This document shows, piece after piece, positions 1,882-4,347 of a stretch of DNA of 4,347 nucleotides. Origin of the DNA: a virus (Duplodnaviria; Heunggongvirae; Uroviricota; Caudoviricetes). The position numbers and the translations under genes were made by a program. Position 1 is the stretch's first letter; each line of letters starts with the position of its first letter. The stretch is from IMG/VR virus record IMGVR_UViG_2671180849_000006; one strand, 5' to 3'. The notes beneath the pieces were generated by a model that did not search any database, was not told the origin of the DNA, and saw only the letters and a list, made by a program, of their open reading frames with translations.

Positions 1882-4347
1882 TCAACGAATACTGATGCCG
1901 GAAGCCGCTTTTTTGGTCACAATCACCGTACAGTCGGTGATATTGCCTGCCCCCTGATTGCCTTTCTGGAAAATCTTAAACTCCAGAGTGACGCTACCAC
2001 CACCACTAGGCATATCAATAACTGCACTGTAACTACCGGGAATGGCCCCTTTAGTTTCTCTGGATGCGATTAATACGCCGTTTTTGCGAACTTCAAAACC
2101 ATAACCCGTGTATCGCGTGCCTCCTGGGTTATTTCCGCTCCCCGGATCGTCATACGCTATACCGTTAAAAATAATGGGCGGAATAATAATCTGGCGGTCA
2201 AAGTTATGATCATCGCTGATGGTGACTGTAACCGTCCCGTTTGGTGTTTCCGTGTTACCCCACGTACCGACTTTTTTCGGGAAGGCTTTTGATACAGCTT
2301 TAACGAAATCCCCTCTGACCTGGGTCGCCTCCAGCATGCCCTTAATCGTACAGTTCTGGTTAATCGTGACATTGTTGAGCGTTCCTGAGTTCGCATTCAC
2401 ACTACCACTGATATCCGCATTTTTAGCGGTCAGCTTTCCGTCTGATGTCAGGGAAAATACCGGAGGACTGCCACCGCTGGTAATGGTGGGGGCCGTCAGG
2501 CGCTTCAGGAACACGTCGTTCATGAATATCTGATTGCCCTGCGCCACAAACATCGGCGTTTCATTCCCGTTTGCCGGGTCAATAAATGCGATACGGTTAG
2601 CGGCAACCAGAAACTGACTCAGTTTGCCTTCCTCCGTGTCCTCCATGCTGAGGCCAATACCCGCGACATAATGTTTGCCGTCTTTGGTCTGCTCAATTTT
2701 GACGCCCCACATGGCATTCCACTTATCGTTAGCATCCTTCCACTCTTTCGAAAACTGCTCCAGTTTGCTGGCGTTATCCTCCGTCAGGTCGACTTTTTCC
2801 AGCAGCTCTTTACCAAGATGGGATTCGGTTATCTTGCCTTTGAAAAAATCCAGGTAACCTTCCGCATCATCGCTCGCCCGACCGACGGCCTCCACGAATG
2901 CCGATTTGCCAACGGTGTTCACACTGCGGATATAAAAGTAATAATCATGGCCCGGTTTGATATTGATACTGGCGGCTATCCAGTACAGCCCCGTGCCAAG
3001 GTAGCGGGCTGTGGTTTCAACCTGCCTGATATCGGTAATCCGCGTTTCCGAACCACTGATATCCGCATTTTTAGCAGTCAGCTTTCCGTCCGGTGTCAGG
3101 GAAAATGCCGGTGGATTTCCACCGCTGGTAATGGTGGGGGCCGTCAGGCGCTTCAGGAACACGTCGTTCATGAATATCTGATTGCCCTGCGCCACAAACA
3201 TCGGCGTTTCATTCCCGTTTGCCGGGTCAATAAACGCGATACGATTGGCGGCAACCAGAAACTGGCTCAGTTTGCCTTCCTCCGTGTCCTCCATGCTGAG
3301 GCCAATACCCGCGACATAATGTTTGCCGTCTTTGGTCTGCTCAATTTTGACAGCCCACATGGCATTCCACTTATCGTTGGCGTCCTTCCACTCTTTCGAA
3401 AACTCCTCCAGTCTGCTGGCGTTATCCTCCGTCAGCTCGACTTTTTCCAGCAGCTCCTTGCCGAGATGGGATTCGGTTATCTTGCCTTTGAAAAAATCCA
3501 GGTAACCTTCCGCATCATCGCTCGCCCGACCGACGGCCTCCACGAATGCCGATTTGCCAACGGTGTTCACACTGCGGATATAAAAGTAATAATCATGGCC
3601 CGGTTTGATATTGATACTGGCGGCTATCCAGTACAGCGCCGTACCAAGATAGCGGGCTGTGGTTTCAACCTGCCTGATATCGGTAATCCGCTTTTCCGAG
3701 AACCAGAACTCAAACTGTACCGTCGGGTCATAAACGGCAAGATGCGGCGTGGCGGTTATCTGAAAATAGCCCGGTGTCAGCTCAATCCGAGACGGCGCTG
3801 CCGGTGCGGCAATCCGGAACGATACCGATGCCGGATCGCCCTGCTGTCCCCACGCATTTACCGCCCGGACAGTCAGCCTGTAGTTCCCCGGCGCCAGTTG
3901 CGTGAAGCGGTATGTGGTTTCCGTCGTCCTTGCCGTACTGACCAGCCGCTCACTGCCATCGTCCGCTGCCACGGTCAGGCGAAGCAGGAAGCTCACCCCC
4001 TTCACCACCTTCGGCGTGTCCCAGCGCGCCAGCACCTGATATTCCCCGCTGTCTGCGGTGACTTCGACAGTCAGGTGCTGCACCGCGGGCGGCGTGACGC
4101 CATTCACCGTGCCGCTCTGGTCGCCGTCAAAGTGCGCCCCGTTATCCACGATGGCTTCTTTTTCGGGTACATGCTGCACGGCGGTAATGGCATACGTGCC
4201 GTCGTCGTTCTCACGGATACTCACGCAGCGGAACAGGCGCTGGCGCAACGTCGGCAACTTCAGCCCCCATACGCTGTATTCGGCAACGCCGTCAGGAACA
4301 CGGCTCACTTTTACCTTCACGCCGTCGGTGACGGACTGGACCTCCAC
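1882..4347 (-). CDS. J: Host specificity protein J (central tail fibre / tip attachment protein J), C-terminal 821 codons; N-terminus lies beyond the window end
   Basis: Single open minus-strand frame to the window edge, ending at TGA 1884..1882. The translation contains segments I recognise as lambda gpJ-like (e.g. [64 protein letters not shown], and [213 protein letters not shown]). It lies upstream of lom as in lambda. Confidence 0.9.
1885..2403 (-). other. C-terminal ~173-aa module of J, putative receptor-binding domain, divergent from the lambda J C-terminus as I recall it
   Basis: After the second repeat unit the protein continues [172 protein letters not shown]. It shares only short motifs with the lambda J end ([21 protein letters not shown], a terminal ...K.A.GIS..). 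The DNA here looks more AT-rich than the upstream J sequence (by eye). In lambda the C-terminal ~250 aa of J determine LamB recognition (established knowledge). Confidence 0.6.
2404..3699 (-). repeat. In-frame direct tandem duplication inside J: two 648-bp units (2404..3051 and 3052..3699), ~96% identical, no indels
   Basis: Direct comparison of the two units at an offset of exactly 648 bp gives roughly 25 substitutions and no gaps (hand count). The protein shows two consecutive ~216-aa blocks ([17 protein letters not shown]...[12 protein letters not shown]), the second with ~8 substitutions (A->G, E->D, R->K, E->Q, A->G, N->S, A->V, P->S). The plus-strand shadow ORFs 2675..2857 and 3323..3505 are the same duplicated element seen 648 bp apart. 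Confidence 0.95.

Follow-up and report, generated by a model that had tools for sequence, protein, structure and literature searches.

In lambdoid phages, gene J encodes gpJ, the tail-tip protein and central tail fibre, which is an obligate trimer. The best described members of this family are J of phage 434 and lambda h434, which recognises OmpC, and lambda gpJ (Protein Data Bank (PDB) entries 8IYK, 8XCI and 8XCJ). We follow the published domain names FNIII-1, FNIII-2, alpha-helical shaft, beta-prism fibre and receptor-binding domain (RBD); in gpJ the shaft (segments 809-840 and 841-861) leads into the prism and then the RBD, and shaft and prism refold, passing receptor binding on to tail opening (PMC11101478). 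Here we analysed a 4,347-nucleotide (nt) stretch of lambdoid prophage DNA (the window), which is the whole contig CYDZ01000083.1 of the draft E. coli assembly GCA_001284165.2 and which carries the 3' part of a J gene. The same gene, domain order and neighbours (J, lom, stf) are found here as in the described phages: the window J is 97% identical in nucleotide sequence to that of phage 434, its best phage match, the downstream 522 nt are 98.5% identical, and lambda gpJ residues 533-965 align end to end. All J genes that we examined in phages and genomes are single-copy for the segment equivalent to lambda residues 749-964, whereas the window carries it twice (record span 1,818 nt versus 2,466 nt here). 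This J belongs to the lambda/434 family and is set apart by an unusual repeat in its interior.

Two kinds of described fibre genes resemble this arrangement in part. The mosaic lambdoid genes reported by De Paepe et al. 2014 (PMC3945230) and Martinsohn et al. 2008 (PMC2327257) likewise consist of alternating blocks whose nearest relatives differ, with switches in stretches that are identical between the partners. Ordinary lambdoid mosaics keep their gene length, however, whereas the window J also contains a non-homologous join of unit end to unit start. Among in-frame tail-fibre duplications, further examples were reportedly found in T4 gene 37 by Tetart and colleagues. In-frame tandem duplications in tail-fibre genes arise under selection in phage-host coevolution, as with the 1.8-kb repeats of Enterococcus phage EfV12-phi1 (PMC6365445), and the window J is similar in that a segment from within the fibre, upstream of the receptor-binding end, is repeated in tandem and in frame. 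Cases of the EfV12-phi1 type come with replicated emergence and a phenotype (PMC6365445), whereas the window J is known from one sequence alone; unlike EfV12-phi1, its copies appear to derive from two alleles and its repeat cuts through an FNIII domain.

Our analysis indicates that this repeat very probably juxtaposes two J lineages that already existed, here called A and X, without divergence in place, and that the 25 differences between its copies are the allelic differences between A and X. The proximal (5') unit P and the distal (3') unit D are both 648 nt long, align in gapless register and lie in frame with the minus-strand open reading frame (ORF), exactly where an earlier reading of the DNA letters (the original prediction) had placed them (Table 1). 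Their edges are abrupt, as base 2403 differs from base 3051 and base 3052 from base 3700. The earlier figure of about 25 substitutions between the copies is the exact count, with 17 at third, six at second and two at first codon positions (18 transitions and seven transversions), and the longest stretches identical between the copies are 174, 116 and 86 nt. All eight of the residue changes listed earlier as conservative are present, and the total is nine (K3T, A21G, E88D, R96K, E99Q, A116G, N195S, A198V and P203S); the one that had been missed, K3T, is non-conservative. A codon-level comparison by the Nei-Gojobori method bore out that the divergence is mostly synonymous, with 16 synonymous and nine non-synonymous differences, a dS of 0.120, a dN of 0.018 and a dN/dS of 0.15 (probability of the synonymous excess about 1e-5). 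The proximal copy had also been said to match lambda J at the differing positions. Lambda does carry the P state at all nine differing residues, but at only 20 of the 25 differing nucleotides, and beyond these sites unit P is 20 nt and five residues (Q4R, A6T, S14T, T15A and S108N) away from lambda.

To place these differences, we compared the units with a panel of single-copy J genes comprising 80 IMG/VR loci, lambda, 434 and several complete E. coli genomes. None of 84 loci from these sources contained a second copy of the unit. Each of the 25 sites varies among 84 single-copy units, with the P state and the D state both present and the rarer of the two in at least six units, and neither unit has a base that is private relative to this panel (0 of 25 differences). 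Polymorphism in the panel affects 134 of the 648 unit sites, and by our own arithmetic the chance that 25 new mutations would all fall on such sites is at most 0.207^25, or about 1e-17. Across pairs of the 68 distinct single-copy alleles that differ at 15 or more sites, the median dN/dS was 0.107 (5-95% range 0.058-0.166) and the median number of differences was 28, so that P versus D (25 differences, dN/dS 0.151) is an ordinary pair within the single-copy allele distribution.

The source of the differences emerged when we painted the gene at informative sites with two reference alleles: L034, an IMG/VR locus that together with four complete E. coli genomes represents the 434-type lineage A, and L089, the locus of E. 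coli strain M10, which together with 07-4299 represents lineage X. These two alleles differ at 27 sites and by the identical set of nine non-synonymous changes that separates P from D. From 5' to 3', the gene consists of an upstream block of the X family, an A block, an X block, the junction, a further X block and a final A block, and it switches between them at 3736-3775, 3265-3352 and 2617-2704. Each unit is therefore a hybrid: P is A-type over nt 1-348 and X-type over nt 435-624, and D is its complement, with a clean split of 14 X sites followed by 13 A sites that has a chance probability of about 1e-7. Both internal switches fall within a single 86-nt stretch that shows no A/X difference (unit nt 349-434), with 14 of the P/D differences in the N-terminal part of the unit and 11 in the C-terminal part.

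When the outer halves of the two units were joined (P nt 1-348 and D nt 349-648), the composite matched the L034 unit, which is single-copy, without a mismatch, and the 522 nt that follow were 100% identical as well; identity to L034 resumes over window 243-1793 (1,551 nt; lom and most of stf) beyond three mismatches at 1794-1802. Cutting the composite at 396 instead (P nt 1-396 and D nt 397-648) gave 100.0% identity to the single-copy units of four complete genomes, and the two composites are the same sequence because P equals D over nt 349-434. The inner 648 nt across the junction, once restored to their natural order, were 99.8% identical (one mismatch in 647 nt) to at least 15 complete genomes, with two mismatches to L089 and four to L085/L086; judged by this match, they are a normal single-copy unit of the M10/07-4299 lineage. 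The gene thus shows blocks with distinct nearest relatives and sharp switches in shared stretches, as a mosaic does. Gene conversion or homogenisation between the copies was considered for the long identical stretches (174, 116 and 86 nt) and is superfluous, as A equals X there too.

These data change what the synonymous bias means. As there are no private differences and the blocks match single-copy alleles at 0-2 mismatches, the low dN/dS predates the tandem state, and the number of differences datable to the time after joining is zero. The bias reflects purifying selection on single-copy J before the tandem joining and is uninformative about selection on the duplicated state, a conclusion that is the same whether the contig is real or partly chimeric. 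The claim that mostly synonymous divergence places both copies under selection is contradicted by the polymorphism of all 25 sites in single-copy units and by the match of the blocks to single-copy alleles. Of the features expected from divergence in place, we found a dN/dS well below 1, but neither private differences nor sharing of the repeat by several lineages. The main value of this case is methodological. A low dN/dS between repeat copies speaks for selection on them only where the substitutions postdate the duplication; where phage genes recombine heavily, the copies can derive from alleles that diverged earlier as single-copy genes, and comparison with population alleles exposes this.

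How the two lineages came to be joined can be sketched in two steps. In the first, the end of a unit would have been joined to a unit start by a single illegitimate, non-homologous event inside X-type sequence, both sides of the junction being X-type within 8-32 nt. The second would be homologous exchange with an A-type allele in the shared 86-nt stretch, possibly by a double crossover in which an X donor with the duplication recombined with an A recipient, by single-crossover integration of a popped-out 648-nt unit circle, or by replication template switching between co-resident prophages. All three routes would yield exactly this structure. Relaxed homologous recombination among diverged lambdoid phages and prophages has been established experimentally (PMC3945230; PMC2327257). 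The A and X lineages also co-reside naturally in one chromosome, that of another strain, 602687 (NZ_CP189657.1), which has an A-type unit at 1,497,060-1,497,707 (100%) and an X-type unit at 2,919,860-2,920,506 (99.5% over the junction query).

At the protein level, the domain alignment predicts that the second copy would add FNIII-2 in part (its C-terminal two-thirds), another alpha-helical shaft and the greater part of another beta-prism fibre, and this added segment would sit between the first, almost complete, prism and the RBD. The Pfam domain Ig_J_second (FNIII-2) at query 184-286 corresponds by alignment offset to lambda 716-818; as the unit corresponds to 749-964, it starts inside FNIII-2. 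This awkward domain cut argues against a selected function.

The junction itself has 0-nt microhomology, and it was not found elsewhere. A 56-nt megablast query detected it in none of 5,426 complete E. coli genomes, and the exact 22-nt junction pattern was absent from 185,579 species representatives, IMG/VR and JGI metagenomes, although the window lies outside all of these sets and thus gives neither search a positive control. With a 400-nt query centred on the junction, every match in complete E. coli genomes consisted of two pieces of the single-copy gene in rearranged order. In a search of 5.8 billion proteins, the full query was covered only by the window's own two records, the other listed J proteins covering 51-53%. 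A 72-residue junction-peptide query gave only 76 short candidates, among which the window's own protein was missing, and is uninformative on other carriers. The repeat arrangement seems to be very recent and is apparently a singleton. An origin by microhomology through the 8-mer GATATCAG, which lies near both unit ends, was rejected, as the period would then be 617-618 nt instead of 648 and the junction peptide would differ; in lambda-type alleles, the word shared near both unit ends is longer than GATATCAG.

As separate observations on the same region, we noted two unrelated chimeric ORFs whose J homology starts at unit nt 19 and 14 (window equivalents 3681/3033 and 3686/3038). They lie in L092 at 3230-3436 (GCA_025305615.1) and in L093 at 3646-3757 (Logan SRR28698710). 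One is a gpT-like::J fusion at a contig end; the other is a Nu1-like::J fusion with 112 nt of X-type J that is 100% identical to unit D. Both J starts are within six codons of the start of the duplicated unit and adjoin GATATCAG, which recurs at unit nt 635-642. The unit start may be a local hotspot for illegitimate or assembly-graph joins, or this may be chance. In addition, several database 'J' proteins (P0005, P0065, P0070 and P0071) have a terminase (PF05876) or ClpP-protease (PF00574) fused to J C-terminal domains. Decayed prophages with large internal deletions may account for these fusions, or the contigs may be chimeric; they show that rearrangement of J is not uncommon among public assemblies.

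Several points weigh against the reading of this gene as a juxtaposition of A and X. The exact parents are not in hand, and the upstream block is 6-8 mismatches away from the nearest X alleles. We found no X-type gene with the duplication, although a duplicated donor and the double-crossover route predict one. Both internal switches lie in one homologous interval, which a single crossover, a template switch or an assembler path swap would explain. The X tract of unit P has the A state at two positions, nt 519 and nt 648, and T at nt 519 was seen in no X-type allele, whether of the panel or of the best-matching complete genomes; these sites could reflect an unsampled sub-variant or short conversion between the copies, and they make the copies more alike. 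Finally, the 4,347 nt of the window make up one entire contig of a draft, and the arrangement is known from that assembly alone. As a side observation on the two odd sites, which are window positions 3180 and 3052, the A-type state that each carries is also the state of the distal copy.

A serious alternative, which we regard as possible although doubtful, is an assembly chimera, in which the assembler threaded one path through nodes shared by the A- and X-type J genes of different prophages. There would perhaps be one real repeat junction, but the contig, and with it the divergence of its copies, would not represent a physical molecule. The window comes from a fragmented short-read draft and J is a multi-copy gene (J-like places per E. 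coli genome: median 2, maximum 9); because the window is a complete short contig of such a draft, part of the pattern may be an assembly effect. One end of the contig falls within J and the other within a collagen-like repeat, the arrangement is a singleton in the databases and the repeat starts in the middle of the FNIII-2 domain. The copies are complementary A/X hybrids that switch in the same identical 86-nt stretch, as path swapping would give. The junction, by contrast, is beyond the reach of path switching. We found no sequence shared across its sides (the nearest shared word being GATATCAG), and for this reason junction-spanning reads must have existed. X markers lie 8-32 nt either side of the junction and A markers lie beside both outer flanks, so that these links fit within single reads. 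Moreover, assemblers would rarely traverse exact repeats of 174 nt twice when read-pair support is missing, and the repeat is in frame, for which the chance is only one in three.

The original prediction had offered unequal recombination of two J alleles as its second model. That two lineages are involved holds up, but the switches lie in the middle of the units and not at the unit boundary, and each copy is a hybrid. A simple scheme in which two intact alleles were joined unequally in one step at the boundary of the units, one supplying the upstream part and P and the other D and the downstream part, is unlikely in our estimate. Over the whole unit, the best identities among about 11,400 J places were 98.8% for P and 99.1% for D, and the nearest relatives do differ: P is nearest to L082/CP148579 (98.8% over 647 nt, about eight mismatches; nine over the full 648 nt) and D to L081/CP148323 (99.1%, about six mismatches; seven in the full comparison). 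Both are closer to their unit than P is to D (25 differences). Against this, the whole-unit parents leave 14-16 mismatches in total, whereas the outer and inner composites leave 0 and 2, and a one-step join would require each parent to be an A/X recombinant, reciprocal to the other and with its break at the same position. Whole-unit parents were rejected on this much worse fit. Because each unit is itself recombinant, we judged tree placement of the units uninformative and set it aside in favour of block-wise nearest neighbours.

Equally improbable to us is a functional reading, in which the contig is correct and encodes a working J with two shaft-plus-prism modules in series, the junction having been moved from an X-type into a 434-type gene by homologous recombination. 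If the functional reading were true, the central tail fibre would be about one module longer than in any described lambdoid phage, the duplication would have persisted in more than one genetic background, and the signal-transmitting fibre of gpJ could be lengthened by a module despite having a truncated FNIII domain in its course. For specialists in tail structure, a gpJ with its shaft and prism duplicated internally would be of moderate interest, and only if it is physically real and functional.

An older tandem duplication whose copies diverged in place and were both kept by purifying selection, the main model of the original prediction, is hardly tenable: a dN/dS between the copies significantly below 1 and an in-frame repeat with an ORF open to its normal stop would suit it, but all 25 differences are common standing polymorphisms with none private (a chance of at most about 1e-17), and both copies are hybrids, the two halves of each matching different alleles of single-copy genes at 0-2 mismatches. 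The flanking A blocks have 0 substitutions in 1,410 nt to a single-copy allele (509 + 901 nt), which is incompatible with an in-place dS of 0.12, and none of the roughly 11,400 J places in complete E. coli genomes, nor any other collection searched, contains the junction.

Table 1. Features of the 4,347-nt window (window coordinates; unit positions are given in gene sense).
Feature	Position	Strand	Basis or detail
J, 3' part, lambdoid tail-tip / central tail fibre	1882..4347	-	ORF list, Pfam, PDB 8iyk, phage 434
Upstream J block, X family (FNIII-1 region)	3775..4347 (gene-sense 1-573)	-	6-8 mismatches to L086/L085/L089, 34 to L034
A-type block 1	3266..3774 (gene-sense 574-1082)	-	0 mismatches to L034 over 509 nt, 15 to L085
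A-painted tract	3352-3736 (gene-sense 612-996)	-	18/18 informative sites A
Unit P, 5' (proximal) repeat unit, 216 codons, lambda J residues 749-964	3052..3699	-	Unit alignment
X-type tract, unit P nt 435-624	3076-3265	-	X sites, except nt 519; last base, nt 648, also A
Minimal X tract across the junction (P nt 435-648 and D nt 1-348)	2704..3265	-	Maximal extent 2618-3351
Junction, unit end to unit start, ...GATATCAGTGGT/TCGGAAACG..., coding ...ADISG/SETR...	3051..3052	gene sense	In frame
Unit D, 3' (distal) repeat unit, 216 codons	2404..3051	-	Unit alignment
X-type tract, unit D nt 8-348	2704-3044	-	14/14 sites X
A-type tract, unit D nt 435-648	2404-2617	-	13/13 sites A
A-type block 2: unit D nt 349-648, 434-type receptor-binding end, J-lom spacer	1803..2703	-	0 mismatches to L034, 901 nt
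lom (Ail/Lom outer-membrane beta-barrel), downstream of J	1212..1811	-	ORF, Pfam Ail_Lom, annotation of related loci
stf-like side tail fibre gene, 5' part, collagen-like G-X-Y run	1..1147	-	Translation, repeat families D2/D3, annotation of homologous loci

The identity of the gene rests on several lines of comparison. In the ORF list, J is a partial coding sequence of 821 codons and a stop that is open at the contig end, and alignment to 8IYK places its start at the equivalent of lambda J residue 533. A series of Pfam domains, all exceeding the curated cut-offs, runs along the fragment: Ig_J, Ig_J_second (two stretches), Phage_Tail_Tip (two stretches) and Ig_GpJ_C, the last spanning residues 685-820. 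Residues 533-965 of PDB 8iyk chain J align to query 1-433, and residues 952-1131 align as well (E = 0). The last 170-odd residues are of the phage 434 type. By sequence, then, the fragment is assigned as a lambda-type tip attachment protein J (TipJ) with a 434-type RBD.

The window contains three lambdoid prophage genes (J, lom and the stf-like gene), all on the minus strand, and the ORFs, the called genes and the annotation of phage 434 agree on the order J - lom - stf, as in lambda. At the start of lom, in the signal-peptide codons (window 1794-1802), there are three mismatches to L034 within 9 nt of an otherwise identical 2.4-kb stretch. The stf-like gene (1-1147) has an N terminus of the lambda Stf type, followed by a stretch rich in Ala, Ser and Glu and then by about 36 collagen-like G-X-Y triplets (about 50-375). 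Lambda's own stf is not known to have such a run. The contig ends directly beyond this collagen-like repeat, and the mismatches to L034 in this gene are few and clustered at window 36-242.

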